Origin: Phycisphaerales bacterium
GTDB lineage: Bacteria; Planctomycetota; Phycisphaerae; Phycisphaerales; UBA1924
Direction of reading: 5' to 3'
DNA length: 48,850 bases
Assembly: GCA_007694925.1 (NCBI GenBank)
Contig: REET01000127.1
Span: 1-48,850 of the forward strand
Position numbers and translations under genes: made by a program. A model generated the notes under the pieces. That model searched no databases, had not been told where the DNA came from, and worked only from the letters and a program-made list of their open reading frames with translations. This document shows positions 25,581 to 47,908 of this stretch, piece by piece; the stretch's first letter is position 1; each line of letters opens with the position of its first letter.

Positions 25581-25599
25581 GCCCGCTCAGGCGTCGCGG

Positions 25600-25974
25600 T
25601 CAGGCCGCGATGCCGGCCTTTGAGAGAGTTTCTGAGATCCGCTGGGAGAGGAGATCGGGCGTGAAGGGCTTGACGACATAGTTGTTGACGCCGGCCTTGA
25701 TGGCCTCGATCACGCGTGACTTCTCGGCCTCGGTTGTGACCATGATGATGGGCGTGGTCTTGTCCTGGGCCCTGTAGGCCTTGACGAACGAGAGCCCGTC
25801 CATGTTGGGCATGTTCCAGTCGACGAGGAGGAGGTCGGGCTTGAAGGCGCCGACCTTGGAAAGGGCGTCCTGCCCGTCGCAGGCCTCTTCGAGCTCGGTG
25901 TAGCCGAGCTGGGAGAGGACGGACTTCTGGATGTTCCGCATGGTCTTGGAGTCGTCGACGAGCATGATGCGCAT
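25600..25974 (-). CDS. cheY: Chemotaxis response regulator CheY
   Basis: 124 aa single REC domain with LVDDS, LLLVDWNMPNMDG, IMVTTE and VVKPF. All conserved D/D/D/T/K positions are present. Confidence 0.9.
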   Translation of the reverse strand: MRIMLVDDSKTMRNIQKSVLSQLGYTELEEACDGQDALSKVGAFKPDLLLVDWNMPNMDGLSFVKAYRAQDKTTPIIMVTTEAEKSRVIEAIKAGVNNYVVKPFTPDLLSQRISETLSKAGIAA

Positions 25975-25999
25975 GGCTGAACCTCCCTGTGTGCTGCGC

Positions 26000-26494
26000 T
26001 CACGCGCTGGCGGACGCCGCCTGTGTCGGGGCGTTTGCGTTTGTCTTGATGGCGATCTGGATGGCGACCTCCCCGCAGTCGGTCATGCAGGGGATCTCGA
26101 TGACGGGGACATCAGAGGTGTTGGCGATCAGGTGGCTCGAGCCGACAACGACCGAGGGGCACGAGATCGAGACCTTGGCGCCCTCGAAGTTGGCCTTGGC
26201 GCCGCCGGCGACCATGTTCACCAGCTCGCCGATGGCGTCGGCGAAGTCGGGCGAATCGGTGCTCAGCTCCTCGCCCGCGAAGAGGGCGACGACGCGCCTG
26301 GCCGCGTCGTCGGGGAACGACAGCACGACCGACCCGACCACATCGCCCGACATCCCGATAATGCCCGAGACATCGTAACCGGTGTTCTTGCCCGCCTTGA
26401 CGCGCGGCTCGCCGATCTGCATCGGCAGCTGCAGCATGGTCGAGAAGACATTCTGGACGCTTTGGATGAACGGGGTGATGAACCTGGCTTCCAT
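26000..26494 (-). CDS. cheX: CheX-type CheY-P phosphatase
   Basis: 164 aa with FITPFIQSVQNVFSTML, DVSGIIGMSGDVVGSVVLSF and the GELVNMVAGGAK (E..N) motif. Confidence 0.8.
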   Translation of the reverse strand: MEARFITPFIQSVQNVFSTMLQLPMQIGEPRVKAGKNTGYDVSGIIGMSGDVVGSVVLSFPDDAARRVVALFAGEELSTDSPDFADAIGELVNMVAGGAKANFEGAKVSISCPSVVVGSSHLIANTSDVPVIEIPCMTDCGEVAIQIAIKTNANAPTQAASASA

Positions 26495-26549
26495 GTCTGG
26501 TCCCTTCCTGGGGTGGGGCGCAATCGGGGGTGTTTCTTTTTTCGTCCGT

Positions 26550-28820: not shown

Positions 28821-28845
28821 ATTCGATTCCTTTCCGGCGATTGTG

Positions 28846-29718
28846 TCAGGCGGCCTTCTTGAGCTCTGCGCCGCGCTTGCGGTAGCAGAACGCGCGTGGG
28901 ATGGGGGTCGGTTCGAGCGTGTCGTTGAGACCCCTGAGGCTCTCGGAGTGCCCGATGAAGAGGTACCCGTCGTCGGCGAGGGTCTCGCTGAACATCTGGG
29001 CGACCTGCTTCTTCATGCCGTCGTCGAAGTAGATCATGACATTGCGGCAGAAGATGACATCGAAGGTGCCGTGGCGCCGGGCCGCGAGGCGGTCCTTGAG
29101 GTTGTGCTGCTCGAAGCGGACCATCTGGGCGATGTCGGGCCTGATGCGGTAGGCGCCCGCGGGCATGGGCTGGAAGTACCGCTGCAGGATGAGCGGGCTG
29201 GTCGAGCGGAGGGCGTAGTTGGTGTACACGCCCTCCTGGGCGGCCTTGAGGACCTTGGCGCTGATGTCGGTGGCGAGGATCTCGATGCGCCAGTCGCCCA
29301 GTCGGACGCCGAGCGTGCGCTCGAGCATGATCGCCAGCGTGTAGGGCTCCTCGCCCGAGGAACAGGCCGCCGACCAGATGCGGAGCCTCTTGGTGCGTGC
29401 CCTGGCGTCGAGCAGCACCGGGAGGACCTGCTTCTCGAAGACCTCGAGCTGGGGTTCGTTCCTGAAGAACGAGGTCTCGTTGATGGTGATGCGGTTGAAC
29501 ATCTCCTGGAACTCGTCTGTCTGGTAGGGGCCCATCGTCAGGAAGGCGATGTACTGCGTGTAGTTGTCGATCTCCAGCTCGGCCAGCCTGTGGCCGAGGC
29601 GCGATTCGAGCACGTACCTCTTGTTCTCCGGGAAGTGGATGCCGGAGCGTTGGTAGATGATGTCCGCGAGCCTCTTGAACTCGGACTCGGTCATCGAAGG
29701 GCGCGTGGTTGTGCTCAT
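28846..29718 (-). CDS. cheR: Chemotaxis protein methyltransferase CheR
   Basis: 290 aa. NETSFFRN and SAM-binding RIWSAACSSGEEPYTLAI are present, followed by FCRNVMIYFD. Confidence 0.9.
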   Translation of the reverse strand: MSTTTRPSMTESEFKRLADIIYQRSGIHFPENKRYVLESRLGHRLAELEIDNYTQYIAFLTMGPYQTDEFQEMFNRITINETSFFRNEPQLEVFEKQVLPVLLDARARTKRLRIWSAACSSGEEPYTLAIMLERTLGVRLGDWRIEILATDISAKVLKAAQEGVYTNYALRSTSPLILQRYFQPMPAGAYRIRPDIAQMVRFEQHNLKDRLAARRHGTFDVIFCRNVMIYFDDGMKKQVAQMFSETLADDGYLFIGHSESLRGLNDTLEPTPIPRAFCYRKRGAELKKAA

Positions 29719-29756
29719 CGCGGGTGTTCCCGTTTCTTTGCTTGAAGATCAGGCGA

Positions 29757-30275
29757 TCAGGCGGCGACGCTGGAGGTCTGGGTCTCGTCGACCATCCGGG
29801 CGTCGAACAGACGCGAAAGATCAAGCAGGATCAGCAGCCGGTCTTCGAGCTTGCCGACGCCCGCGATAAACTCGGAGTTGATCGAGCAGACCATCTGCGG
29901 CGCCGGCTCGACGATGCTCGAAGGGATGCGGAGCACCTCGTGCACGCGGTCGACGATGAAGCCGATCACCCGCCCGTGCACCTCGACAACAACGATCCGG
30001 TTGTGCTCGGTGCGCTCGCTGGCGTCGAGCCCGAAGCGCTTGCGCAGGTCCAGCACCGGGATGATCTTCCCGCGGAGGTTGATCACGCCCTCGACCTCCG
30101 GGGGCGACTGGGGCACCCGCGTCAGCGCCATCATCCGGTTGATCTCCTGGACAGCCAGGATGTCGACGGCGAACTCCTCGCCGGCGACCTCGAAGGTCAC
30201 CAGCTGCAGCTGGTCGTCGCCCCCGTGCTCGCCCTGGGGCCCGCTCTTGTCGGTGATCGAAAGGTTCTCGTTCAT
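29757..30275 (-). CDS. cheW: Chemotaxis coupling protein CheW
   Basis: 172 aa. LVTFEVAGEEFAVDILAVQEI ... GVINLRGKIIPVLDLRKRFG is present. Confidence 0.9.
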   Translation of the reverse strand: MNENLSITDKSGPQGEHGGDDQLQLVTFEVAGEEFAVDILAVQEINRMMALTRVPQSPPEVEGVINLRGKIIPVLDLRKRFGLDASERTEHNRIVVVEVHGRVIGFIVDRVHEVLRIPSSIVEPAPQMVCSINSEFIAGVGKLEDRLLILLDLSRLFDARMVDETQTSSVAA

Positions 30276-30382
30276 GGCTCGGTTCTCCGTACGGACGGCC
30301 GGCGCGGCCCCGTCGACTGCTGGCTATCGACCCCGCGAGCATCCGCCTTGACGCCACCGCAGGCGATCTTTGAACGCCCGGG

Positions 30383-31438
30383 TCAGGAAGCCGTCCGCAA
30401 CGCACTCGCGCCGGGTCTGACCGACGCGACGACCTGCCCCAGTTCTCGGGGTGAACCCTCAAAGGCGGCCATCCCGCGCGAGGCGACAGCGCGGGGCATG
30501 CCGTAGACGGCGCACCCCTTCTCGTGCTGCACGATGATCTGTGCGCCCAGGTCGGTGAGGTCCTTTGCGCCCTTGGCGCCGTCCTCGCCCATGCCGGTGA
30601 GGACGACGCCGAGGCAGGCGCGTCCGACGGTCTTTGCGGCGGTGGAGAAGAGGATGTCGACGCTGGGCTTGTAGGGCGCCTCGGGGGGATCCTCGCTGAT
30701 GGTGAGCACCATGCCGCGCTGCCCCGAGCCGATGCGTCCGTGCTTGCCCCCCTGGATGATGTAGACGGTCCGCGGGTTGAGCACGGCGCTGCGCGTCACA
30801 TGCTCGACATCGAGCGGGCAGTGTGCGCCCAGGCGCTCGCCGAGCCCCTTGGTGAACAGGGGGGGCATGTGCTGGGCGATGACGATCGGCACGCCGAGGT
30901 CGCTGGGCATGACGCTCAGAAACTCTTCAAGCGCCACCGGACCGCCCGTCGACGAACCGACAAGCACCAGGCGGATGCGGTTCGGGTGGTCCAGGCGGAA
31001 GCCGCTGCCGTGCGCGACATTGGGCGGCAACAGACGCGAGATCTCGCCGAGCAGCTTGGCGCCGGTCTCGGGGTCCGCGGCCCGGAGCTTTTCGGGCTCC
31101 GCCTGCAGCCAGCCCGCCTTGCACCGGCGCATCTGAAAGAGCGCGTCTCGGTGTGGCCGGTCACCAGTCCAGACAAACACGCAGACCGGGGGGCGGGTGC
31201 GCTCGGGGCCGGTGGCGGTCATCGCGTCGAGCTGCGAGAGATCCGGGGGCGCGCCGAGGGTCACGATCGCATCGGGGCGGAGCGTCGGCGTCAGGCCCAA
31301 GGCCGTGGCCGGGTCGGAGGCGTACCCGCAGACGGTCACCTTCCCGGGCTCAGAGAGCATGCGGGCGACGGCCTGTCTGACGAACGCCGAGCTGTCGACG
31401 ATGAGCACACGCACGCCGGCTCGATTCCCCCCGGACAA
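30383..31438 (-). CDS. cheB: Chemotaxis methylesterase CheB with a degenerate N-terminal receiver domain
   Basis: The catalytic domain is intact (GSSTGGP, AQHMPP, GMGEDG). The receiver-like N-terminus has VDSS and IVTLGAPP where DD and the phospho-Asp are expected. The track start is TTG 31438; GTG at 31414 is an alternative. Confidence 0.85.
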   Translation of the reverse strand: MSGGNRAGVRVLIVDSSAFVRQAVARMLSEPGKVTVCGYASDPATALGLTPTLRPDAIVTLGAPPDLSQLDAMTATGPERTRPPVCVFVWTGDRPHRDALFQMRRCKAGWLQAEPEKLRAADPETGAKLLGEISRLLPPNVAHGSGFRLDHPNRIRLVLVGSSTGGPVALEEFLSVMPSDLGVPIVIAQHMPPLFTKGLGERLGAHCPLDVEHVTRSAVLNPRTVYIIQGGKHGRIGSGQRGMVLTISEDPPEAPYKPSVDILFSTAAKTVGRACLGVVLTGMGEDGAKGAKDLTDLGAQIIVQHEKGCAVYGMPRAVASRGMAAFEGSPRELGQVVASVRPGASALRTAS

Positions 31439-33700: not shown

Positions 33701-33724
33701 GACGAGGGCCTCTCGGCCGCTAAA

Positions 33725-33808
33725 TGCCCAGGAGAGGACTCGAACCTCCACCCGGTTGCCCGGACTACCACCTCAAGGTAGCGCGTCTGCCAATTCCGCC
33801 ACCTGGGC
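33725..33808 (-). tRNA. tRNA-Leu (anticodon GAG)
   Basis: 84 nt, folded by hand. The acceptor is GCCCAGG/CCTGGGC, the D-arm has GG, and the anticodon stem CTACC/GGTAG carries loop TTGAGGT. There is a long variable arm (type II) and a T-arm GGAGG-TTCGAGT-CCTCT. No CCA is encoded. Confidence 0.9.
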
Positions 33809-34022
33809 ATGGACCGCCTCGCCCGCTCTGGGCTTGGGGGTGGAGATTGTAACGGGCGGAGCCGAGAAGTCGAACCGCCCGGCCGAGCGGGCGTCCGGCG
33901 TGCAAGGGTCCGGAAACAGTTCTATCGTTGGCCCACGCGGGGCCGGCCCCTCGGCCCCGCGGAGTACGGTGAGGCTGCAGAGTGATCGCCGGGTCAGCCC
34001 GGCGTCGGAAGAGGCAGGTGCT

Positions 34023-35453: not shown

Positions 35454-35507
35454 TCGCCGCGCGAGCGTGACGGATCACCCAGACTGAAAACAGACTGAAA
35501 ACACAAC

Positions 35508-35535
35508 GGGGCCGCGCTCCGGTGAGCGCGGCCCC
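35508..35535. terminator. Hairpin terminator between convergent genes
   Basis: 12-bp perfect stem ggggccgcgctc/gagcgcggcccc with loop cggt, followed by gcgttgattgtttgt on the plus strand. Confidence 0.65.
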
Positions 35536-35585
35536 GCGTTGATTGTTTGTGCGCTGGCCGCGAGCGGCCCGGACATTACAGAGAT

Positions 35586-35828
35586 TCAGGCGCCCGCCTC
35601 GATGATGCGACCGGCCTCGATGTCCTGCTGCTGCTGGCGCTGCTGGCGCTGGAACTCCTCGGTCTGCTCGAACGCGTCAGCTTCTTCCATCAGCTGCTGA
35701 TACTCAGTCGACGGAGGCGGAGTGGAATCGCCGCCGATGACGCCGAAGTACATCGCGAGCACGACGCCGGCGACCACGAGGGCCGCGATGGCGAAACCGA
35801 TCTTGATCTTGTCGTTCTTGGAAGCCAT
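35586..35828 (-). CDS. Small membrane protein with Gln/Glu-rich tail (hypothetical)
   Basis: 80 aa with one TM (IGFAIAALVVAGVVLAMYFGVI). Third codon positions are GC-rich like the host genes. Confidence 0.5.
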   Translation of the reverse strand: MASKNDKIKIGFAIAALVVAGVVLAMYFGVIGGDSTPPPSTEYQQLMEEADAFEQTEEFQRQQRQQQQDIEAGRIIEAGA

Positions 35829-36028: not shown

Positions 36029-37381
36029 TCACCCGACATCGCGCCGCTGGAAGAACGCCACGCCCAGAGCCAGGAAGGCGATGATCAGCAGAACGGCGTA
36101 GAGCATCACCATGGCGACATGGCCGGCGGGGATCGCACGGTTCTGCGCGATCGCGTCCATCAGCCAGAAAAACTGCATGTTCGGGGTCAGCACCCAGGCC
36201 GTCAGCAGCACCGGGTTGTACTCCGTCGGTCGGAGGAAGACCGCGTCGTTGACCATCGGGGGCCTGCGGATATTGAGCGGTCGACCGCCGATGTGGCGGA
36301 TGTGGACCGTCAGCCCGTCCACCCCCGTGACGATGACCGCTGGCTCGACATCCCGCCCCAGGACATCGCCCTCGGGGTCGCCCTCGAACGGGGCGAAGGG
36401 GGGGACGGCCAGCCGGAAGCCGTTCGGATTCTCGCCGTAGTAGAACGAGCCGCCGGGCAGGATGTCCTCGTTGGGCGGCCCGTCGAGCACGACGGTGTAC
36501 CGCTGCCCCGGCCTCGAGAAGGACTGGTCGGCCAGGTCGACCGACTCGACCGACTGGATGTAGGCGATGACCTTGTTGTCCATCGCGCCGCGACCGACCA
36601 GGTGGTTGGCCAGGAGCCCGAAGAGGAAGAGGCCGGCGCAGACGACGATCGTCATCACCTGCCCCAGCCGGGTCGAGACCGCCACCGCGACGGCGGTCAG
36701 CACCAGGATCGCCATCGCCAGCACCCCGCAAGCGAGTGTGACAGCGGGCATGAAGTCAGTGCCCAAGGGCTGTGGGCGCCACTCCTTGCTGAAGAGGAGC
36801 ACCCCGAGGTAGGCCAGGAGGAAGGTGGGGAGGACCAGGGTCGAGGCGACCTGCGTGAACGACCACCCGTAGAAGTAGTTGCACCACGCCGCCAGCCCCA
36901 ATGTCAGCAGCGCCGCGACGAACGAGAAGAGGATCACCGGCTGATCCGGGTCGTCCGCGGCGGTGGTGAGCACCCCGTGGCGGAGGCTCAGGAGCAGGAA
37001 CAGGAGCATGACGGCGGTCGCCATCATGATCGCGACAGTCACGCCGATGTACTTGCCGATCACGACGGTCGCCCGCCCAACGGGCTTGCTGATGACGGTC
37101 AGGGCGGTCTTGTTCTCGATCTCGCGGCTGATGGTCGCGGTGGCGATGAAGGCCGCCAGCAGGACGCCGCACCCGAAGATCGTCCCCATCCCGATGTCCA
37201 GCAGGAGCTGGTCGTCGGCGGAGACCTCCGCGGAGGTGCTGTAGGCCATGCTGAAGTTGGTGCCCCAGGTGTTGAAGATCTGGATCACGCCGCAGAGCGC
37301 GATCAGAAAAAAGTAGATCGGCTGTCGGATCGCCTCGACGAAGGTCGTTCTGGCGATGGCGATGACCTGAGCGAATGGCAT
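36029..37381 (-). CDS. ABC-2-type transporter permease with a large inserted extracytoplasmic domain
   Basis: 450 aa. VIAIARTTFVEAIRQP and ISREIENKTALTVISKPVGRATVVIGKYIG match the ABC-2/NosY-like signature. It has multiple TM helices and is paralogous to 43588..45582. Confidence 0.7.
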   Translation of the reverse strand: MPFAQVIAIARTTFVEAIRQPIYFFLIALCGVIQIFNTWGTNFSMAYSTSAEVSADDQLLLDIGMGTIFGCGVLLAAFIATATISREIENKTALTVISKPVGRATVVIGKYIGVTVAIMMATAVMLLFLLLSLRHGVLTTAADDPDQPVILFSFVAALLTLGLAAWCNYFYGWSFTQVASTLVLPTFLLAYLGVLLFSKEWRPQPLGTDFMPAVTLACGVLAMAILVLTAVAVAVSTRLGQVMTIVVCAGLFLFGLLANHLVGRGAMDNKVIAYIQSVESVDLADQSFSRPGQRYTVVLDGPPNEDILPGGSFYYGENPNGFRLAVPPFAPFEGDPEGDVLGRDVEPAVIVTGVDGLTVHIRHIGGRPLNIRRPPMVNDAVFLRPTEYNPVLLTAWVLTPNMQFFWLMDAIAQNRAIPAGHVAMVMLYAVLLIIAFLALGVAFFQRRDVG

Positions 37382-37767
37382 CAGGGAAGGCTTCCGGTTG
37401 GGGGCTTCGCGATCTTTGACATGTCCCTTGGGCCGATCGGCCGGGGGTGGTGGCGGGAATTTTACGCCGCCAATGAACCCGTGTTCGCGCCAAGCGTATC
37501 TCGGTGGATCTCCGCAGGGGAGGTGTTTTCCGCTGCGGGCCGTCGACTGACGGGCCCGCGCCGGCGAGCCCTGTTCTGGGGATCTTCGGGTTTCGGGGCG
37601 TTCCTTCCGCTTCGCCGGGTGGACAAGTGGCCCGCCACCCGAGACAATCCCGCCCCTCGGCGGCGGGCGTCGGGTCTCGGCGCCCCGCGGTGTGTTTCAC
37701 TCCGCACGCGGGGAATGGGTTGGAAGCAGGAACAGCGGTTCGGGGTCTCTCCGGGAGCCGTCGCGGC

Positions 37768-39834
37768 ATGAAACCAGACTTCTCCAGTTACCGTCGGGCG
37801 CTGAACATCAGCATCATCGGCATCGCCATCCAGCTTGTGATGGCGGTGCTCTTGGTGTTCTACGGCACCTTCGCCAACGACCACGCGGCGATCACCGCTT
37901 CGATCTACGCCGCCATCGGCCTGGTCTCGTGGCTGACGCTCATCATCCTTTTCGACCAGCACCGGCGCGAGCGGGTCGAGGCCTTCGAGGCCGAGGCGAT
38001 GGAATCGTCGGGGGCGTCGGCCTCCAGCGTCTTCGAGCAGTCGGGCGACGAGCTCCGCGTGGCCGCGAGGCGCCTGAGGGCGCTGTACCGCTTCTTCCTG
38101 CCCGTGATGGGGCTGATCGTCGGCGGGGGGATGGTGACCGTCGGCGTCGTCCGCTTCAACGCGGGTCGGGAGCTGATCGGCGACCTGGACAGAGAATTCG
38201 CCGCCGACACTTTCTTCGCGCTCTTCGTCTCGCTCGCGGCGACCGTGATCGGGTTCATCTTCGCCCGCTTCTGCTCGGGGATGGGCAAGCAGAAGGTCTG
38301 GGTGAACCTGAACGCCGGCGCGTCGGCCGCCGTGGGCGTCGCGGTCTTCGGGGCCCTGATCGCGGTGGGGCACTTCTTCAAGATCGCCGGGCCGGACACG
38401 CTGCTCCGGTATCTGACGGTCGTCCTCCCGCTGGTGATGATCCTGCTGGGCGTCGAGACGCTGTTGAACCTGCTGCTTGAGATCTACCGCCCCCGGAAGA
38501 TCGACGAGCACCCCCGTCCGGCGTTCGACTCGCGCATGCTCGGCCTGATCGCCGCCCCCGACAGGGTGGCCCAGTCGATCGGCGACGCGATCAACTACCA
38601 GTTCGGCACCGACATCACCGGAAGTTGGTTCTACAAGCTGTTCAGCCGCTGGGCCGGCACGCTCGTGCTCTTCGGGCTCCTCGTCGGCTGGCTGCTGACC
38701 TCCGTCGCTGTGGTGCAGCCCCACCAGGTGGGCGTGCTGGAGCGGTTCGGTCGTCAGGCGGCGATCGTCGAGCCGGGCCTGCGATTCAAGCTGCCCTGGC
38801 CGATGGATCGCGTCGTCGTCCCCGAGTTCATCAACCGTGATGAGCGGGGCAACATCGTCGCCCGCATCCGCACCGCGACGGGCATCCGCACCGTCCAGCT
38901 CTCAACACCCCCGGTCACCTCGCCCCACCAGCCGATCCTCTGGACCAACGAGCACGCGGCCGAAGAGGTCTTCACCATCGTCCGGGCCGACGAGGGCACG
39001 GGCGGCGAGGACGAGCTGGCCGACTTCGGCCTCATCGCGGCTGAAGTCCCCCTGCACTATGTGATCGACGATGTGCTCTCCTTCGAGCGGCTCGCCACCC
39101 CCGAGCACCGCGAGGAGATCATCAAGGCGATCGGCCGGCGCGAGGTCATGCTCTACCTCTCGACCATCACGCTCGACGAAGCGCTGGGCGAGGTGCGATC
39201 GGACATCCGCAAGGAGCTCGCGTCGAGGCTCTCGGGCTCGCTCGACGCCGTCGGCACCAGCGGCCAGAACGCGGGCGTCCGCGTCGCGTTCGTCGGGTAC
39301 CAGGGCGTCCACCCGCCCCGCCGGGCCGCGACCGCCTTCGAGAATGTGATCGTGCAGGAAGCCAAGAACGAGGCCCTGTACAGCCGCTCGCGGGGCCGGG
39401 CGATCCGCGAGCTGACCGAGGCCGCGGGCTCAGAACGCGACGCCGAGCGGGCGATCGAGCTGCTCGACCGGCTCGAGCGTCTCCGCGAAGAGAGAGCTTC
39501 GGACCAGGAGATTCTCGATGTGACTATCGAGATCGAGCAGGCGCTGGCGCGTGGCGGCGAGGCTTCGCGCCTCCTGGCGAGGGCCAGGGCCGAACGCTGG
39601 ACGAGGCACATGTCAGACAGAGCGCTGCGGGATCAGTACGAGGGCGAGCTCGCCGGCTTCCGGGCCAACCCGGGCCTGTTCATGGCGATCCGCTGGTTCG
39701 ACACCCTCGCAGACATCATGAACAGCACGAGGGTGTACGTCACCGACAGACCGGACCTTGTCGATTCGGTCTACATGCTCCAGGAGCGGACCTCGGCGGC
39801 GGACATCTTCATTCAGGATGACACCGATCAGTGA
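37768..39834 (+). CDS. SPFH/Band-7 protein, HflK-like, fused to a polytopic (about 7 TM) N-terminal module
   Basis: ORF 37504..39834(+). Start is ATG 37768. Residues 1 to about 312 carry about 7 hydrophobic helices. The HflK-like core follows: VVQPHQVGVLERFGRQAAIVEPGLRFKLPWP ... VAFVGYQGVHPPRRAATAFENVI. Confidence 0.75.
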   Translation: MKPDFSSYRRALNISIIGIAIQLVMAVLLVFYGTFANDHAAITASIYAAIGLVSWLTLIILFDQHRRERVEAFEAEAMESSGASASSVFEQSGDELRVAARRLRALYRFFLPVMGLIVGGGMVTVGVVRFNAGRELIGDLDREFAADTFFALFVSLAATVIGFIFARFCSGMGKQKVWVNLNAGASAAVGVAVFGALIAVGHFFKIAGPDTLLRYLTVVLPLVMILLGVETLLNLLLEIYRPRKIDEHPRPAFDSRMLGLIAAPDRVAQSIGDAINYQFGTDITGSWFYKLFSRWAGTLVLFGLLVGWLLTSVAVVQPHQVGVLERFGRQAAIVEPGLRFKLPWPMDRVVVPEFINRDERGNIVARIRTATGIRTVQLSTPPVTSPHQPILWTNEHAAEEVFTIVRADEGTGGEDELADFGLIAAEVPLHYVIDDVLSFERLATPEHREEIIKAIGRREVMLYLSTITLDEALGEVRSDIRKELASRLSGSLDAVGTSGQNAGVRVAFVGYQGVHPPRRAATAFENVIVQEAKNEALYSRSRGRAIRELTEAAGSERDAERAIELLDRLERLREERASDQEILDVTIEIEQALARGGEASRLLARARAERWTRHMSDRALRDQYEGELAGFRANPGLFMAIRWFDTLADIMNSTRVYVTDRPDLVDSVYMLQERTSAADIFIQDDTDQ

Positions 39835-39864
39835 CGCGCGTGACCGCGTATTAGGAGCCAAAGA

Positions 39865-40887
39865 GTGCGCATCAAGGCAGTTGTCATCTGGGGTCTCGTG
39901 GCCGTCTTCGGCATCGCGCTGGCGTCGTTCATGTTCACCTACACGGTGCGGTACACCGAGACGGCGGTCGTGACGACCTTCGGCCGGGCCCCCGCCGACG
40001 CCGAACCAAAGGGCGCCGGCATCTACTTCCGCTGGCCGTTCCCCTTCCAGATCGTCACCAAGTACGACACCCGTCTGCGGATCATCGAGACCACCGCCGA
40101 GACGCAGCAGACCGCCGACGATCGGCCGCTCATCGTCGAGGCCTACGCGATCTGGCGGGTCAGCGATCCGATGGCGTTCTTCCGCGAGTACAGCGGCGCC
40201 GGCGACAGCGCCGAGCGTCACTTCAACGCCGCCGACGAGGTCGTCCGCGGGCGTCTGCGTGCCGGCCAGTCGCTGATCGGGCGCTACGCGCTGACGGACC
40301 TCTTCCCGCCTTCGGGGCGCGGGGGAAGGATCCCCGAGCTCGAGCAGCGGATGCTCGAAGAGATGCGTGCCGAGGGCGCCGGTGTCGGCGAGCGGAGCCT
40401 CGCCGACAGCGGGATCGAGGTCGTGCAGATCGGGATCAGCCGCGTCCGACTGCCGCAGGAGGTCACCCAGGCGGTGATCGAGCGCATGCAGGCGGCCCGC
40501 AACCGCGAGACCGAGACCCTGCGCAGCCAGGGCCAGCAGGTCGCCGCCCGCATCCGCTCCGACGCCGAGGCCGACCGCCAGCGCATCCTCGCCTTCGCCA
40601 GGGCCCGCGCCGCGGAGATCCGGGCGCTGGGCGACCGCGAGGCGGCCGAGTACCTCGCCGGCATGACCGAGGAGCCCCGTCTGGCGATCTTCCTGAAGAA
40701 CCTGGACATGCTCCGCGACTCGCTCGCCAACCGCACGACGCTCCTGCTCTCGACCGACCTGCCGGGCCTGCGTCTGCTGAGCCCAGAGTCGATCGAAAAC
40801 ATCGGGCCCGACGGGCTGCCCTACCTGGGCGTCTTCGAGGAGCCCGCGCAGACCCCCGTTTCCCGCCGGGAGGGACAAGGTGACTGA
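39865..40887 (+). CDS. SPFH/Band-7 protein, HflC-like
   Basis: GTG start with RBS aggag at 39852-39856. It has a single N-terminal TM. IEVVQIGISRVRLPQEVTQAVIERMQAARNRETETLRSQGQQ ... LAIFLKNLDMLRDSL parallels E. coli HflC. Confidence 0.8.
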   Translation: MRIKAVVIWGLVAVFGIALASFMFTYTVRYTETAVVTTFGRAPADAEPKGAGIYFRWPFPFQIVTKYDTRLRIIETTAETQQTADDRPLIVEAYAIWRVSDPMAFFREYSGAGDSAERHFNAADEVVRGRLRAGQSLIGRYALTDLFPPSGRGGRIPELEQRMLEEMRAEGAGVGERSLADSGIEVVQIGISRVRLPQEVTQAVIERMQAARNRETETLRSQGQQVAARIRSDAEADRQRILAFARARAAEIRALGDREAAEYLAGMTEEPRLAIFLKNLDMLRDSLANRTTLLLSTDLPGLRLLSPESIENIGPDGLPYLGVFEEPAQTPVSRREGQGD

Positions 40888-42316
40888 AGGCAACAGCAAC
40901 CAGGGTCAGGACCCGATCTTGGGCGGTGACACTCCCGCCTCGCAGCGTGAGGCCTCGGTCACGCTGCAGCAGCGCACGCAGCGTGAATCCGGCTCCCTGA
41001 TGGATCCGGCGCACGAGTCGCTTGCCGACGCGCTGCGGATCACGATGCGCGTCGTGCAGTTCGCGATGATCGCGCTGGTGCTGCTGTTCTTCCTCAGCGG
41101 CGCCCGCCAGATCAACGAGGGCGAGCGGGGCGTGCGCCTGGTTTTCGGGCGCGTCGCCGACGACAACCTCACGCCCGGCTTCCAGCTCTCGTGGCCTTTC
41201 CCCATCGGCGATCTGATACGGGTCGGCACCGGCACCGAGCGGATCGCGTTGGACGGCGCTCGTGAGTTCTGGCCCTTCCTCACCGAGACCGAGCGCCGAC
41301 GCTCGATCGACGAACTCGGCGGTCGCCCCAGCCTCGATCCGGCCAACGACGGCTCGCTCATCACCCGCGACCAGAACCTCGTGCACGCCCAGTGGCGTGT
41401 CACTTACCAGCGGCGCGAGCCCGCCTCCTACATCCGCAATATCCACCCCGAGCACGAGGAACGGATCATCCGCGCCGTCACCAAGCGCGCCGTCGTCCGC
41501 CATGTCGCCGAGCAGTCGATCGACGGCGTGCTCCGCGAGGGCGGCAGCGGCGAGGGCTCGCTCTCGATCGCCGTCCGCTCGACCGCCCGCGATCTCCTGG
41601 AAGACATCGGCTCGGGCATCCGCGTCGAGTCGATGGAACTCATCAGCAAGGTCCCGCCCCTGGCGGCCCGCAGCGCGTTCAACCAGGTCTCTTCGGCGCA
41701 GTCCGAGGCGCAGCGCGAGGTCGAGAACGCGCGTGCGCACGCCCGCGGCGCACTGCTCGGGGCCGCGGGGTCCATCCCCGCCGCCGAGCGTCTCGTCGAG
41801 CTCATCGGCGAGTACGAGCTGGCGACCGACCGCGAGCGTGCGGCCCGCGACGACAACGACGCCGAGGCCGTCCAACTCGCGATCGCCGACCGCGACCGCT
41901 GGCTCGCCGAGATCCACACGCTGATGGAGGACCCCGAGACCAGCGGGCAGGTGAACAGCCTCGTCAGCGACGCGAGGACCTACCAGCTCACCGAGTCGGC
42001 CCGTCGCCGCACAGACTTCGCCACCTACCAGGCCCGTCTGGCCCAGTTCCGCGAGAACCCCAGCGTCACCATCCACCGCGACTGGTCCGACGCGTGGCTG
42101 GCGTTCATGAACCGCGACGCGGTCGAGCTCTTCTTCCAGCCCAAGGGCGTGAGGGGGACGGAGATGCGATTCGGCCGCGACCCGGAGATCATGCGCACCC
42201 TCGAGCGCGTGCAGAAGCAGCGCCGGGCCGAAGAGATCGAGCGTCAGCGCCAGCGTGAGCTCGAGCGTCGCGAGTTCGAGGTCGACACCACCCGCGTCGA
42301 GATGGACGCCGGCTGA
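40880..42316 (+). CDS. SPFH/Band-7 protein, second HflK-like paralog with coiled-coil tail
   Basis: GTG start overlapping the previous stop by 8 nt. It has one TM (VVQFAMIALVLLFFLSG), then INEGERGVRLVFGRV...PGFQLSWPFPIG ... IRVESMELISKVPPLAARSAFNQV. Confidence 0.75.
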   Translation: MTEGNSNQGQDPILGGDTPASQREASVTLQQRTQRESGSLMDPAHESLADALRITMRVVQFAMIALVLLFFLSGARQINEGERGVRLVFGRVADDNLTPGFQLSWPFPIGDLIRVGTGTERIALDGAREFWPFLTETERRRSIDELGGRPSLDPANDGSLITRDQNLVHAQWRVTYQRREPASYIRNIHPEHEERIIRAVTKRAVVRHVAEQSIDGVLREGGSGEGSLSIAVRSTARDLLEDIGSGIRVESMELISKVPPLAARSAFNQVSSAQSEAQREVENARAHARGALLGAAGSIPAAERLVELIGEYELATDRERAARDDNDAEAVQLAIADRDRWLAEIHTLMEDPETSGQVNSLVSDARTYQLTESARRRTDFATYQARLAQFRENPSVTIHRDWSDAWLAFMNRDAVELFFQPKGVRGTEMRFGRDPEIMRTLERVQKQRRAEEIERQRQRELERREFEVDTTRVEMDAG

Positions 42317-42334
42317 CGCGCCGACGGAGACCGC

Positions 42335-43591
42335 ATGACCCAGTCCGCCGCTTCTCCAGACAAACCGGTCGTCGCGGCCGATCGCCTGACCAAAGTCTTC
42401 AAGGACTTCTGGCTCAGGGACCGCGCCCGCGCCGTCGACAACCTGACTTTCGAGATCAACCGGCGCGAGATCTTCGGGCTCCTCGGGCCCAACGGCTCGG
42501 GCAAGAGCACCACCATCAAAATGATCCTCGGCCTCCTCAGGCCGACCTCCGGGCGCCTGGCCGTCTTCGGCAAGCTCCCCACCGATGTCTCCACCAAGAA
42601 GCGCATCGGCTTCCTCCCCGAGGAGTCGTACCTCTACGGGTTCCTCAACGCCCGCGAGACGCTGGACTACTACGGCAAGCTCTTCGGCCTCACCCACCGC
42701 GACCGCCAGAAGCGCATCGAAGAGCTGCTGGACATGGTCGGCCTGACCCAGGCCCAGTTCCGCCCCGTCCGCGAGTACTCCAAGGGCATGCAGCGCCGCA
42801 TCGGCCTCGCCCAGGCGCTCATCAACGACCCCGAGTTCCTCATCCTCGACGAGCCGACCACCGGCCTCGACCCTCTGGGCACGCGACAGGTCAAGGACCT
42901 CATCATCGAGCTCGGCAGGCGGGGCAAGACCATCCTCCTCTCCAGCCACCTCCTCGCCGATGTCGAGGACTGCGTCGACCGGATGGTCATCCTCTACGGC
43001 GGCAAGAAGCGCGACGAGGGCATGCGCGACGACCTGCTCGTCCGAAACTCGCGCACCACCATCGAGTCCGAGCTGCTCGACGACGCGACCATCGCCGAGA
43101 TCGACCGCATCATCCGCGAGCGGACCGGCGGCGAGAAGTCCATCCTCACCGTCTCCCACCCCCGCCAGAAGCTGGAAGAGAAGTTCCTCGAGATCGTCGA
43201 GCGCGCCCGCGCCGAGAAGCTCGAAACCTCCGGCGCCACCCACGGGGGCGAGGTCGCCGCCTTCCTCCGCGGCACCGCGACCGGCGAGCGGCTCATCGAG
43301 GAGCTCGTCTCCGCCGTCGACGACGCGCCGCCCCCCCCGGAAGTCGAAGAGGCTGTCGAAAAGAGAAAGGGCCCCGACGGCCCCGACGCCTCGGTCATCG
43401 GCGACCTGCTCAAGCAGGCCGACGCCGAGCCGGCGCAGCGACCTGCCCCGGGCCCGGACAAGGAAGCCGACCGCAAGGAACGCCCGGCCGACGACCGCGT
43501 CGACATGGATGTGATCGGCTCGCTGCTGGATTCGGGCGACCGCGATAGAAACGACGGCGACGGCCAGGGCGGCCGGGAGCGCAAGCAGTGA
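42335..43591 (+). CDS. ABC transporter ATP-binding protein with an acidic low-complexity C-terminal extension
   Basis: Walker A GPNGSGKST, signature-like YSKGMQRR, Walker B FLILDEPTTGLD, H-loop LLSSHLL. A tail of about 110 aa carries two VIGxLL motifs. Confidence 0.9.
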   Translation: MTQSAASPDKPVVAADRLTKVFKDFWLRDRARAVDNLTFEINRREIFGLLGPNGSGKSTTIKMILGLLRPTSGRLAVFGKLPTDVSTKKRIGFLPEESYLYGFLNARETLDYYGKLFGLTHRDRQKRIEELLDMVGLTQAQFRPVREYSKGMQRRIGLAQALINDPEFLILDEPTTGLDPLGTRQVKDLIIELGRRGKTILLSSHLLADVEDCVDRMVILYGGKKRDEGMRDDLLVRNSRTTIESELLDDATIAEIDRIIRERTGGEKSILTVSHPRQKLEEKFLEIVERARAEKLETSGATHGGEVAAFLRGTATGERLIEELVSAVDDAPPPPEVEEAVEKRKGPDGPDASVIGDLLKQADAEPAQRPAPGPDKEADRKERPADDRVDMDVIGSLLDSGDRDRNDGDGQGGRERKQ

Positions 43592-45582
43592 GACTCGGCG
43601 AAACGCTGAGAAGGCTCGACAGGCTCCAGCATTCGCTGGGGTTCAAGATCGCCGCGTCAGCCGTTGTCGTCGGCCTCATGCTCTTCGGCCTCGGCGCCGT
43701 GGCGCTCGACGCGATCGGCAGCCGCGAAGCGGTCGAGGAACGCCTCGCCGCCGTCGAAGCCACCCAGGAGGAACAGGCCGACGGGCGAGAGTCGCTCGCC
43801 CGCGCGGGCGACGACGCCTCGGCGCTGGCGGCCGTCCAGCGCATCGCCGAGCAGCAGGACAACCCCACCGGCAGGGCCTTTGCGATCGGCGCCGGCGGCT
43901 TCGTCGCCCTGGTGATCGTCTGGCTCGGGCTGGCGCTGACCTACCTCGGCATCGCCCTGGTCGCGGGGGTGGTCGTCGTTCCGCTCTGGCTCTTTGAGTC
44001 CACGCGCAGCTTCGCGCTGATCGGGGCGGGTGTGCTCGCGCTCTCAGCGTCGTTTACGGCGTTGATGCAGTTTCTGCGTCTGGCCTTCAGCGGCCCCGGC
44101 CCGGTCTTCGCCATCGCCCGCAATGTGCTGGCCGAGGCCGTCCGCCTGAAGCTCTCGCTGCTGTTCATCGTGCTCCTGGTCTTTGCGCTCGCGGCCCTGC
44201 CGGGCCTGCTCGACGGGGAACGCCAGCTCCGCTTCCGCATCCAGTCCTTCCTGCAGTACGGGACGGGCGGGGCGTTCTGGATCATCGCCCTGCTCACGCT
44301 GCTCTTCTCGGTCGCGACCGTCGCCTTCGAGCAGCGCGACAAGCTCATCTGGCAGACCGTCACCAAGCCCGTCTCGCCGGCCAAGTACATTTTCGGAAAG
44401 TGGCTCGGCGTCGCCGGCCTCAACGCAGTGCTGCTGGCGGTCTGCGCCTCGGGCGTCTTCCTGTTCGTCGAGTACCTTCGCGTGCAGCCTGCTGCGGGTG
44501 AGATCCGGGCCTTCGAGCCCGCCTCGACGGGCGTGCTCATCAGCGAGGACCGCCTGAAGCTCGAGACCGAGGTGCTCTCCGCACGCGTGACCGCCGAGCC
44601 CGAGCCGCCCTTCCGAATGGACGACCCCGGCTTCCGCGAGAGCCTCCGCGAGTACATCGAGAGCCGGCGCCGCATCGAGCCGGGCTTCGCCCAGACCGAC
44701 GCGGAGTTCGAGGAAGTTGTCCGCGACACCTTCCGATCGGCGACCGTCCACGCGATGACGCTCGAACCGCCGATCATCACCCCGACGGGCGCGCAGGCCG
44801 TGCCCCGGTACTTCCGCTTCGAGAATCTCGAAGGCGCCAGGCGGAGCACGCGCCCCGTCACCATCCGCTTCAAGGTCAACTCCGACGAGAACAACCCGAC
44901 GCACTTCTACGACATCGAGTTCCTCTTCATGGGGTCCAGCGGGCCGTTCTCGACGCACCGAAAGACCGCCGCCGCCGTCACGCAGACGATGACCCTCCCC
45001 AACGACATCATCCAGGCCAACGGGGTCCTGGAGTTCTACATGTACAACCACGGGCGCGACGACGACCGATGGTGGGAAACCGGCATGCAGCTGTCGGGGC
45101 CGCTCTACATCGACGAGAACGGCGGGCTCCAGCTCCTCTACAGCGTCGGGGACTACCGCGCCAATTTCATGCGTGTGATCTTCGTGCTCTGGCTCAAGCT
45201 CGCGGCGCTGGCGATGCTGGGCATCTGCACCGCGACCTTCCTGAGCTTCCCCGTCGCCACGCTCGTCGCCGGGGTGATCTTCCTCAGCGCCGAGGCCGCG
45301 GGCTTCCTCGCCGGCTCTCTGGAGTCCTACCGGATCCGCGACCACGACGGGAACCTGATCTGGTGGAAGTATGTCGCCGAGCAGATCGCGCTGGTCATCA
45401 GCGATTTCTTCCGCATCTACGCCAGCCTGAGGCCCACCTCCCGTCTCGTCGACGGGCGGCTGCTGAGCCTGGGCGACACGGCGCTGGGTCTCGTCGTTCT
45501 GGCGCTGTTCACCCTGGTTGTCTACGCGGTCGCGGTGCTGATCTTCCGCAGACGCGAGCTGGCGATCTATTCGGGCCAGTGA
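43588..45582 (+). CDS. Large ABC-2-type permease-like membrane protein
   Basis: GTG start overlapping the ATPase stop (GTGA). VFAIARNVLAEAVRLKL and FEQRDKLIWQTVTKPVSPAKYIFGKWLG mirror the motifs of 36029..37381. It also has an extra N-terminal TM region and a large central soluble domain. Confidence 0.7.
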   Translation: MRLGETLRRLDRLQHSLGFKIAASAVVVGLMLFGLGAVALDAIGSREAVEERLAAVEATQEEQADGRESLARAGDDASALAAVQRIAEQQDNPTGRAFAIGAGGFVALVIVWLGLALTYLGIALVAGVVVVPLWLFESTRSFALIGAGVLALSASFTALMQFLRLAFSGPGPVFAIARNVLAEAVRLKLSLLFIVLLVFALAALPGLLDGERQLRFRIQSFLQYGTGGAFWIIALLTLLFSVATVAFEQRDKLIWQTVTKPVSPAKYIFGKWLGVAGLNAVLLAVCASGVFLFVEYLRVQPAAGEIRAFEPASTGVLISEDRLKLETEVLSARVTAEPEPPFRMDDPGFRESLREYIESRRRIEPGFAQTDAEFEEVVRDTFRSATVHAMTLEPPIITPTGAQAVPRYFRFENLEGARRSTRPVTIRFKVNSDENNPTHFYDIEFLFMGSSGPFSTHRKTAAAVTQTMTLPNDIIQANGVLEFYMYNHGRDDDRWWETGMQLSGPLYIDENGGLQLLYSVGDYRANFMRVIFVLWLKLAALAMLGICTATFLSFPVATLVAGVIFLSAEAAGFLAGSLESYRIRDHDGNLIWWKYVAEQIALVISDFFRIYASLRPTSRLVDGRLLSLGDTALGLVVLALFTLVVYAVAVLIFRRRELAIYSGQ

Positions 45583-45661
45583 GGCCCCCGGGCCCGGCCC
45601 GCACGGGCCGAAGGCGAACAATCACCCGTCCGCCGGCGTTGGTAGCCGGGGAGACAGTGCC

Positions 45662-47908
45662 ATGCAACGAAACACCGTTCTGCAACTGATCGCGCTGGGT
45701 GTTTTCGCGTCGTGCGTCGCCGCGGCGGGGTTCGTCTCGACACGCCTGACCAGCTCGTCCAGCCGCCACCAACTGGTCTACACCGAGCACACCGCCGAGG
45801 GCCTTCCCGCCGCCGTCGGGCTCGGCGTCGCCCTCGGGCCGGTCCGCGGGTTCTTCGTCAACTTCCTTTGGATGCGGGCCAACCAGCTCAAGGACGACGG
45901 CCGCTTCCACGAGGCGATGAACCTCTCGCGGGCCATCACCGCCCTCCAGCCCCGCTACCCCCATGTCTGGGTCTTCCACGCCTGGAACATGGCGTACAAC
46001 ATCTCCGTCACCAGTTCCGACCGCCACGAACGCTGGCAGTGGGTCAACAACGGCATCCAGCTCCTCCGCAACGACGCCATCCGTTTCAACAACTCCGACC
46101 TGCTGATCCACAAAGAGCTCGGCTGGATCTTCCTCCACAAGATCTCCGGCGTCACCGACGACGCCAACCAGTTCTACAAGCGAGAACTCGCCGCCGAGTG
46201 GACCGAGGTGCTCGGCGAGCCCCCCAGGCTCGGACCCGTCCTCTCCGCCTCGCTGGCCAGGACCCTCTCAGAGAGCCTGCGCGGGACGCACGGGTACCGA
46301 CTCCAGCTCCCCCGCAACGAGGGCGAGCGCATCGCCCGACGCTTCACATCCGTCGCCCGCGCCGATTTCGAGCAGACACTGGAAGAAGGCGTCGGTCCCG
46401 ACAACACCCTGACGCGGCGCCAGGCCGAGGCCCTCGCCGAGATGCTCGAGCGTTTCGGTGTCGCAGGCGAGCTGCCCCGCATCCCCCTGAGCCAGTACCT
46501 CGCCGGCGCGCTCTACGAGGCCTGGTTCGGCCCCGTCGCGGCGGCGCCCGAGACGATGGCCGAACTCTACCAGCGGAACCCGCAGACGCGGGCGCTCGTC
46601 GAGGCCATCCGCGCCAATGTCACCACCAACCTCGACCGCACCTTCCTCCAGCGGTACACGCGGACACGGGCGATCGCAAACTCCGTCTACCGCGACCGCC
46701 TCGACCAGGTCGGCCCCCGCTCGCGCGCCCTCTTCGACCTCGTCGAGGACGAACGCTTCGCCGACGCTTGGCCCGCCCTGCTCAACCATGTCCGCAGGCG
46801 CGTCCTCATCGACCACTACAACATGGAGCCGTCGCGCATGATCCGCTACACGCGACGCTTCGGGCCCATCGACTGGAGACACCCCGCCGCGCACGCCCTC
46901 TACTGGACCACCCGCGGCGTCGAACTCAGCCTCCGGCGCGTCGAGGACCGCAACCAGGACGACTTCGACTTCATCAACACCGACCGGCAGGTCATGCACG
47001 CCCTCCAGGAGCTCTACCGCTTCGGCGATCTCTACTTCAGTTACCTCTACCATGTCTTCCCATCGCTCCGCCTCGATCGAGGCCAGCTCGCCGACGGCAT
47101 GGTGATCGACAGCCTCTACAGGGCCGTCCCCAACGCATACTTCATCGACACCTACGCCCAGACGCTCGAAGAGCTCCGCGAGCGCGCCAACCAGTTCGGC
47201 ATCTTCGAGGACTACCGCCGGCGCACCTACACCCTCTACTCCGCCGGCTACGAGAACTTCCTCAAGGACGCCATCCGCTTCCTCTACCGTCGCGGCGAGA
47301 TCGAACGCGCCAACTACTACCACGAGAAGCTGATCACCTACGACAAGCGGAATGTCCACTACGCCGCGCTCACCTACGAGCTGGCCACCTCCATCGACGA
47401 GTTCGTCCGCGAGCAGTTCTCTGAGGACCGCTTCAAGACCCACTATGTCGCGGTCTCGGAGATCGAGGCCGCCCTCCAGGGCGCGTTCATCAACGGGCTG
47501 CTGACGGGCAACGACACGCTCTTCCAGCGCAACTTCGCCTACGCCAGGGCCTTCCACCGCGCGTATGTGCGCGAGCAGGTCGAGGGCATGGACCTCGCAG
47601 CCGCCGGCGGACGCGGACGCGCCCGCATGGAGGTCGTCGACCGCGACTTCCGCTGGGTTGCGGGCAGCACCTTCATGGACCTGATCTCCACGCTGGACAT
47701 CTCCGACGCCGAACGCGTCTACGACGCAGCGCCCGAGGACCTCCGGCGCTTCGGCTACTGGATCATGCAGCGCGAGGTCGGCTCGGCGCGCAACCCCGAG
47801 ATCGCCCTCGGCGGACGCGAGTTCAACGATGTCTTCCCAGAGCCCCCGGGCATGGACGAGTTCGAGCGCTGGATGGACGAACAGCTCACCCGATTCCGGT
47901 CGAACTGA
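45662..47908 (+). CDS. Hypothetical membrane-anchored helical-repeat protein (748 aa)
   Basis: ATG start with an N-terminal anchor (VLQLIALGVFASCVAAAGFV). Composition is normal (W, Y, F, N rich) and the region LWMRANQLKDDGRFHEAMNLSRAITALQPRYPHVW looks TPR-like. I recognise no family. Confidence 0.6.
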   Translation: MQRNTVLQLIALGVFASCVAAAGFVSTRLTSSSSRHQLVYTEHTAEGLPAAVGLGVALGPVRGFFVNFLWMRANQLKDDGRFHEAMNLSRAITALQPRYPHVWVFHAWNMAYNISVTSSDRHERWQWVNNGIQLLRNDAIRFNNSDLLIHKELGWIFLHKISGVTDDANQFYKRELAAEWTEVLGEPPRLGPVLSASLARTLSESLRGTHGYRLQLPRNEGERIARRFTSVARADFEQTLEEGVGPDNTLTRRQAEALAEMLERFGVAGELPRIPLSQYLAGALYEAWFGPVAAAPETMAELYQRNPQTRALVEAIRANVTTNLDRTFLQRYTRTRAIANSVYRDRLDQVGPRSRALFDLVEDERFADAWPALLNHVRRRVLIDHYNMEPSRMIRYTRRFGPIDWRHPAAHALYWTTRGVELSLRRVEDRNQDDFDFINTDRQVMHALQELYRFGDLYFSYLYHVFPSLRLDRGQLADGMVIDSLYRAVPNAYFIDTYAQTLEELRERANQFGIFEDYRRRTYTLYSAGYENFLKDAIRFLYRRGEIERANYYHEKLITYDKRNVHYAALTYELATSIDEFVREQFSEDRFKTHYVAVSEIEAALQGAFINGLLTGNDTLFQRNFAYARAFHRAYVREQVEGMDLAAAGGRGRARMEVVDRDFRWVAGSTFMDLISTLDISDAERVYDAAPEDLRRFGYWIMQREVGSARNPEIALGGREFNDVFPEPPGMDEFERWMDEQLTRFRSN

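Follow-up and report, generated by a model that had tools for sequence, protein, structure and literature searches.

Do three SPFH genes, the genes of an ABC-2 transporter and the gene of a large alpha-helical protein that lie side by side in a Phycisphaerales genome encode one system? The question is raised by positions 36029-47908 of a 48,850-nucleotide (nt) stretch of DNA from a Phycisphaerales bacterium (GenBank assembly GCA_007694925.1, contig REET01000127.1); the whole of this stretch is referred to here as the window. The original prediction, made from the sequence without database searches, had proposed that the seven genes found there form an envelope system of a type not yet described. 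Based on comparisons of sequence, predicted structure and gene order, we conclude that the seven genes probably constitute one undescribed cell-envelope machine. Conservation of the block carries this conclusion: the full set of seven genes, with order and strands unchanged, is present in 70 of the 71 loci in which at least 9 kb of sequence lies upstream of the gene for the helical (solenoid) protein.

Organization and conservation of the gene block

Gene order, coordinates and junctions at 36029-47908, as originally predicted, were reproduced from the list of open reading frames (ORFs). permA (36029-37381, minus strand) encodes a 450-amino-acid (aa) ABC-2 permease (PF12679) with about 8 transmembrane (TM) segments. 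It is separated by a 386-nt divergent intergenic region (37382-37767) from six plus-strand genes: SPFH1 (37768-39834; 688 aa, HflK-like), SPFH2 (39865-40887; 340 aa, HflC-like), SPFH3 (40880-42316; 478 aa, HflK-like), an ABC ATPase gene of the DrrA/GldA/NatA type (42335-43591; 418 aa), permB (43588-45582; 664 aa, a divergent ABC-2-type permease) and the solenoid gene (45662-47908; 748 aa, with one TM helix at the N-terminus ahead of an all-alpha region). The start of SPFH3 overlaps the stop of SPFH2 by 8 nt, the ATPase stop and permB start share the 4 nt GTGA, and the remaining plus-strand gaps are 30 nt (SPFH1-SPFH2), 18 nt (SPFH3-ATPase) and 79 nt (permB-solenoid). In a hairpin scan, the spaces between the plus-strand genes held no terminator-like site of over 6 stem pairs; the lone 12-pair match lies within the SPFH1 coding sequence. 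The 386-nt region holds a single weak sigma-70-like match (37620-37648) and matched no Rfam element, and the idea of a riboswitch or other known RNA in this leader was dropped on that result.

Linkage was tested by tblastn with the seven window proteins against 89 loci, and a scan of GTDB species genomes found relatives in 443 stretches. The ranked homolog lists were filled by Phycisphaerales and unclassified Planctomycetota, and our statements on distribution hold within that lineage. The 17 loci with shorter flanks are consistent with a full block as far as their sequence reaches. Median values of identity to the window proteins lie at 36-50% (ATPase, 65%) and the lowest values at 27-30%; the arrangement is the same in a divergent tier of loci that includes the cultured Mucisphaera calidilacus Pan265 (CP036280.1), strain ZRK34 (CP050848.1) and the 7.4-Mb genome CP087563.1. 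Two of the junctions are also widely maintained. The SPFH2/SPFH3 overlap is kept in 52 of 66 loci (48 by 4 nt) and the ATPase/permB overlap in 66 of 70 (55 by 4 nt), counts that are approximate because gene starts in related loci were picked by nearness to the start used in the window. The median gap from SPFH3 to the ATPase gene is 21.5 nt.

Flanking genes vary from locus to locus. A group of glycosyltransferase, S9 peptidase and chemotaxis genes lies upstream of permA in the window and downstream of the solenoid gene in locus L002, and its position on opposite sides indicates inversion or rearrangement breakpoints at the cluster edges. The linkage claimed for the window thus extends past close relatives, to proteins of 27-30% identity set in rearranged flanks.

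Components of the predicted machine

The SPFH identities are secure at the level of the domain. Band_7 (PF01145) scored above the Pfam cutoff in SPFH1 (E=2.9e-9), SPFH2 (2.2e-24) and SPFH3 (4.3e-14); the identities originally given to the ATPase and permA were likewise upheld by Pfam. E. coli HflC is the best solved relative of SPFH2 (2.8e-26, in an alignment that reaches residue 325 of 334), the SPFH1 family profile matches HflK at 2.8e-25, and SPFH3 also matches HflK best. All three proteins nonetheless fall below the NCBIfam equivalog cutoffs: SPFH2 scored 112.4 bits with TIGR01932 (hflC, cutoff 134.4), and SPFH3 and SPFH1 scored 98.7 and 48.3 bits, respectively, with TIGR01933 (hflK, cutoff 159.4). 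SPFH3 and the C-terminal half of SPFH1 are full-length paralogs (24% identity over ~390 residues, E=2e-14), whereas the similarity of each of them to SPFH2 is marginal and limited to the N-terminal TM and first strand region. The trio therefore consists of two HflK-like proteins, SPFH1 and SPFH3, and one HflC-like protein, SPFH2, an assignment by sequence that would place it in the cage-forming HflK/C clade.

SPFH2 and SPFH3 share a simple layout, with one N-terminal TM followed by a predicted periplasmic SPFH domain and helical region; in SPFH2 the predicted periplasmic part is an SPFH plus coiled-coil region. SPFH1 deviates from the single-TM plan. Hydropathy and the AlphaFold2 (AF2) model (pLDDT 83.8, pTM 0.77) agree on the seven TM segments first noted from the sequence. 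Residues ~1-290 (window 37768-38650) are modelled as six long membrane helices plus an amphipathic segment, an HflK-type TM anchor follows at residues 295-318, and the predicted periplasmic SPFH and helical region comes last. The start at 37768 is backed by the lengths of the homologs (660-720 aa, with one outlier of 511 aa) and by the N-terminus that they share, MKxDxxSYRRA. Q22, W55 and E230 are invariant within the helices of the bundle, and a loop, YRPRKxGExPRPAFDSR, is nearly invariant. When the N-domain was queried alone in a word-indexed search, 16 proteins were returned, mostly partial, a number that is not a measure of its distribution.

Structural comparison of the SPFH1 N-domain with Foldseek gave top matches that were all cation diffusion facilitator (CDF) transporters (among them YiiP and ZnT1/3/7/8), with query-normalised TM-scores of 0.34-0.49 and a best E of 0.014. 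Pfam Cation_efflux appeared faintly in the SPFH1 family (2 of 36 members, E=0.0039). Within the helices, an alignment read by eye shows just two invariant polar residues, Q22 and E230, and no counterpart of the Asp/His metal-site motifs that CDFs carry in TM2 and TM5 was seen among the invariant residues. The CDF resemblance is thus at most suggestive. A sterol-sensing or RND relationship was also considered and rejected. The phmmer match to NPC1L1 that had suggested it (E=1.9e-4) fell to 0.038 with the family profile, no Pfam match to the sterol-sensing domain, Patched or MMPL was found in the 36 family members, and neither NPC1 nor RND proteins were among the top 50 Foldseek matches. The NPC1L1 match was put down to composition bias between membrane segments.

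The transporter part of the block comprises the ATPase and two distinct permeases. ABC_tran (PF00005) matched the ATPase at 5.3e-31, and its motifs, read from the translation, are intact: Walker A GPNGSGKST, signature YSKGMQRR, Walker B ILDEP and H-loop SSHLL. The protein ends in a long, acidic, low-complexity tail (residues ~290-418, window 43200-43591), and its homologs range from 393 to 490 aa across loci. No ABC component reached an NCBIfam equivalog cutoff, Gld, Nos and Drr models included; the ATPase scored 205 bits against 312 for DrrA and 192 against 402.6 for GldA, and neither permA nor permB matched a Gld-named model at E<=0.01. The ABC genes are thus not orthologs of GldA/F/G or of another module covered by these equivalogs, in keeping with what had been proposed.

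permA scored 49.5 bits with ABC2_membrane_2, against a Pfam cutoff of 27.2, and has a predicted periplasmic domain of ~110-150 aa within residues 265-414. permB is extended at its N-terminus by 3-4 TM segments, has a core of 6 TMs and is predicted to hold a periplasmic domain of 225 aa (residues 300-524); no PDB relative was found for it by single-sequence or profile search. The paralogy of the two permeases, first proposed from shared motifs, was confirmed by BLASTP (E=1e-6) and hhalign (95.9% probability, E=5.9e-9). It spans the N-terminal amphipathic helix through TM3, a segment that holds the motifs IARxxxxEAxR and E..K....T/SKPV......GK. Residues 284-394 of permA (window 36200-36530) are absent in the divergent tier (L086-L089), where permA measures 321-355 aa rather than 450 aa and permB 550-616 rather than 664 aa; the periplasmic domains of the permeases are therefore lineage-variable.

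The last gene encodes a protein that had been called an orphan, a description that did not survive. Among 1.84 billion cluster representatives, an exhaustive profile search recovered 2,806 homologs at E<=1e-3 and 958 at E<=1e-30; a word-indexed search found 913. Among the matches listed, the named homologs belong to Phycisphaerales, Phycisphaeraceae, Phycisphaera or unclassified Planctomycetota, with the exception of one isolate and one metagenome-assembled genome labelled Planctomycetales/Planctomycetaceae. The AF2 model (pLDDT 83.4, pTM 0.82) consists of an N-terminal TM helix and an all-alpha solenoid of ~700 aa. No sequence relatives were found in the PDB, and Foldseek returned generic TPR/solenoid scaffolds (Ctr9, Tom71, Naa15; best E=0.011), so the search for a specific structural homolog was abandoned; some homologs carry faint TPR_14 annotations. 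Most homologs are ~655 aa long, and an 81-residue insertion at residues 194-274 (window 46241-46483), modelled as confident helices, is common only to the closest relatives.

Hydropathy, with an N-in orientation assumed as in E. coli HflK/C, predicts that the three SPFH domains, the soluble domains of permA and permB, and the solenoid all lie in the periplasm, leaving the ATPase as the sole cytoplasmic component. NfeD, which the original prediction had reported missing, had no Pfam match in the seven cluster proteins or in the scanned window ORFs. A role in anti-phage defence was considered and dropped: PADLOC models gave generic ABC/AAA matches for the ATPase and nothing for the other six proteins.

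Edges and neighbours of the block

On the permA side, a small minus-strand ORF (35586-35828) lies 200 nt downstream of permA and encodes an 80-aa protein with a single TM and a Q/E-rich tail. No terminator separates it from permA, which is on the same strand. Positional homologs are found in L008, L009, L029 and L078 (E 3e-4 to 2e-10); none lies beside permA in L086 or L087, and most loci end before that position. In some of the lineage the small ORF may count as an eighth gene of the block. Between it and a convergent glycosyltransferase gene, a bidirectional terminator-like hairpin (35506-35537; 14-bp stem, 12 G-C pairs) closes the permA side.

Farther out, a tRNA-Leu(GAG) gene (33724-33809, minus strand) lies between the S9 peptidase and glycosyltransferase genes and is covered by spurious long ORFs on both strands, as is typical for DNA of 68% GC. 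A chemotaxis/flagellar block (FapA, CheA, CheB) occupies 24042-31438 on the minus strand, with a counterpart at 16973-21942 in L002; the S9 peptidase and a GT4/GT5 glycosyltransferase travel with it in both. In two loci of the divergent tier (L087:12273-20710 and L089:12494-21428), a conserved series of genes continues in the same orientation after the solenoid gene; it encodes a hypothetical protein, a VWA or DUF5684 protein, a TPR protein, ExbB/MotA, 2-3 ExbD proteins and a TPR protein of ~900-950 aa. The window lacks this series, which resembles a Tol/Ton-like energiser cluster. In L085 (ERZ25039483 contig_32998, 840 kb) the cluster is present with SPFH1 and permB each split into two called genes, probably by frameshift errors of a long-read assembly and not as real pseudogenes.

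A proposed mechanism and its alternatives

Membrane cages of HflK/C, prohibitins, flotillins, erlins and stomatin have been revealed by cryo-EM, and in NosDFY, ATP hydrolysis drives a periplasmic partner instead of classical transport. Both precedents bear on how the block could work, and both differ from it. Like E. coli HflK/HflC-FtsH (PDB 7VHP, 7WI3, 9CZ1), the SPFH proteins of the block have N-terminal TM anchors and predicted periplasmic SPFH and helical regions, and a K-like and a C-like gene are adjacent and translationally coupled (SPFH2/SPFH3). The block has three paralogs rather than two, however, SPFH1 adds a six-helix bundle, the conserved partners are an ABC-2 transporter and a solenoid, and scores lie under the equivalog cutoffs. 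NosDFY (PDB 7O0Y) resembles the block in having one ATPase gene and large periplasmic partners, which are predicted in the block, and permA belongs to the same Pfam family, ABC2_membrane_2, with NosY as its only PDB match. The block differs in carrying two distinct permeases, both with periplasmic inserts in the lineage of the window, in its SPFH partners, in the absence of NosD beta-helix and NosL domains by Pfam and NCBIfam, and in an E of 0.067 for the NosY match.

Three other systems invite comparison. The GldA/GldF/GldG system of gliding Bacteroidota likewise combines a DrrA/GldA-type ATPase, one or more ABC-2 permeases and a large extracytoplasmic component. Gld belongs to another phylum and has no SPFH partners, and the ATPase of the block scores 192 against the GldA cutoff of 402.6. 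SPFH-NfeD pairs (stomatin/QmcA/FloA) also join an SPFH scaffold to a dedicated membrane partner in one operon; in the block that partner is an ABC transporter with a solenoid, and no NfeD domain is present. The closest published case of a single predicted operon with three SPFH paralogs is PaFlo5-PaFlo6-PaFlo7 of Pseudomonas aeruginosa (PMC13086221). That comparison is by description; the text of the paper mentions no ABC or other transporter with PaFlo5-7, and their distribution is patchy, as after horizontal gene transfer, whereas the block recurs in every related lineage sampled. We found no published description of an SPFH trio with an ABC-2 transporter and a solenoid, including in the 2009 survey of prokaryotic SPFH operons (PMC2636767), the 2024 genomic analysis of the class Phycisphaerae (PMC11266412) and the 2026 SPFH survey of P. 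aeruginosa (PMC13086221), as the original prediction had anticipated. The components are all of known kinds; their conserved combination and the SPFH1 fusion are new.

We propose that the seven, possibly eight, genes specify a lineage-specific inner-membrane machine of the Phycisphaerales that would face the periplasm. Its engine would be the ABC-2 transporter, in which a dimer of the ATPase probably sits on a heterodimer of permA and permB. The N-terminal amphipathic helix and the E..K...KPV...GK loop are retained in both permeases. The partner of this engine would be a hetero-oligomeric HflK/C-type assembly of the HflC-like SPFH2 with the HflK-like SPFH1 and SPFH3, to which SPFH1 would contribute an extra six-helix membrane bundle, and the membrane-anchored alpha-solenoid would serve as a scaffold, presumably in the periplasm. 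Much as HflK/C does with FtsH, the SPFH ring could corral or scaffold the engine, and ATP hydrolysis might then power either the export of an envelope component or NosFY-style conformational work on periplasmic partners. This is the likeliest of the explanations considered here, and the chances appear evenly balanced that the products do form one periplasm-facing inner-membrane complex of this kind, in which an SPFH assembly scaffolds or surrounds the ABC-2 engine and the solenoid acts as a further scaffold. The analysis establishes the identities of the domains, a predicted topology, the paralogies, the intact motifs of the ATPase and the deep conservation of the block. Physical association of the subunits, their stoichiometry, the enclosure of the transporter and its substrate are points that we infer; for enclosure of the exporter by the SPFH assembly, the inference is from synteny and translational coupling. 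A stronger proposal, that a three-paralog cage with SPFH2 alternating with SPFH1/SPFH3 physically encloses or gates the engine and the periplasmic solenoid as a lineage-defining Phycisphaerales machine, possibly a mechanotransducer, is put forward tentatively and is rather unlikely in this full form.

Several observations weigh against the proposal of a single machine. Being divergently transcribed, permA is on a separate transcript from the other six genes, and the support for a single complex is gene linkage. The one solved relative of the permA family profile, NosY, is not a significant match, and the ABC-2 Pfam matches of permB are sub-threshold (22.2 vs 31.6 bits). At the one exceptional locus, L022:9739-11733 (CAYVFW010000013.1), a solenoid homolog of 38% identity is present, and the 9.7 kb upstream of it hold none of the other six genes; an MFS transporter and a GCS2 glutamate-cysteine ligase are found there instead. 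Finally, the best solved relatives of the SPFH proteins are E. coli HflC and HflK, and their best NCBIfam models are hflC and hflK. This last point favours the main alternative, in which SPFH2 and SPFH3 are just the ordinary HflC and HflK of the Phycisphaerales, SPFH1 is an additional HflK paralog, and FtsH is modulated by them as it is in E. coli. The ABC transporter and solenoid would then be co-transcribed neighbours that are not enclosed, possibly a client of FtsH or part of a co-regulated function in the envelope. It agrees with the report that HflKC affects proteins other than FtsH substrates (PMC12005517). The lack of ftsH at the block had been taken to speak against such a partner. The gene is indeed missing there in the window, and only one of the 89 loci has an FtsH-like gene at a distance of up to 10 kb from the cluster (L008:18686-19489, minus strand; 65% identity to the E. 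coli FtsH core, with a query that is fit for detection and not for identity values). As an argument the absence is uninformative, because canonical hflKC operons (hfq-hflX-hflK-hflC, or hflK-hflC alone) are also unlinked to ftsH (PMC13086221). Against FtsH modulation stand scores under both equivalog cutoffs (112 vs 134.4 and 98.7 vs 159.4), a set of three paralogs, one with a six-helix bundle, that is unlike the canonical pair, and a linkage to the ABC and solenoid genes that 70 of the 71 loci preserve, along with short gaps between SPFH3 and the ATPase gene, and that is hard to account for without shared function. We therefore consider this explanation possible but doubtful; it and the single complex are not mutually exclusive.

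If the ABC transporter and solenoid were instead unrelated to the SPFH proteins, the block would be two operons that are adjacent and co-inherited without functional coupling. ABC transporters and SPFH genes are both common, and permA is on the opposite strand, as such an accident would allow. Yet collinearity persists at 27-40% protein identity with differing flanks, the gaps between genes are short and free of terminator-like sites above 6 stem pairs, and permA on one side and permB on the other leave the SPFH genes nested within the transporter gene set. This nesting makes chance adjacency unlikely, and we judge this explanation improbable. A metal or ion module, in which the SPFH1 bundle is a CDF-like transporter domain, the ABC-2 part resembles NosFY in copper delivery and the SPFH ring regulates ion flux, would draw on the CDF matches of the SPFH1 N-domain in Foldseek, the faint Cation_efflux matches and NosY as the only PDB match of permA. 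None of these matches reaches significance, nothing like the CDF metal site was seen, with Q22 and E230 as the only invariant polar residues in the helices, and Pfam and NCBIfam searches found no NosD, NosL or CDF cytoplasmic domain in the cluster. It appears very improbable.

To our knowledge, the dedicated clients of bacterial SPFH proteins are few, namely FtsH and the NfeD partners. The deeply conserved, operon-like grouping of an HflK/C-type trio, an ABC-2 transporter and a solenoid is a testable candidate for a new class of SPFH client. If enclosure of the transporter is correct, this would be the first SPFH assembly with an ABC transporter as its dedicated client, rather than a protease or NfeD, and the cage-plus-ABC block might be a mechanotransducer instead of a simple exporter. 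Since the block is present in cultured strains with complete genomes (M. calidilacus Pan265, ZRK34), co-purification, cryo-EM and genetics are feasible. The block also gives context to families that have lacked annotation, namely the solenoid with its 2,806 representatives, permB and the SPFH1 N-terminal bundle, in a lineage whose envelope biology is poorly understood.

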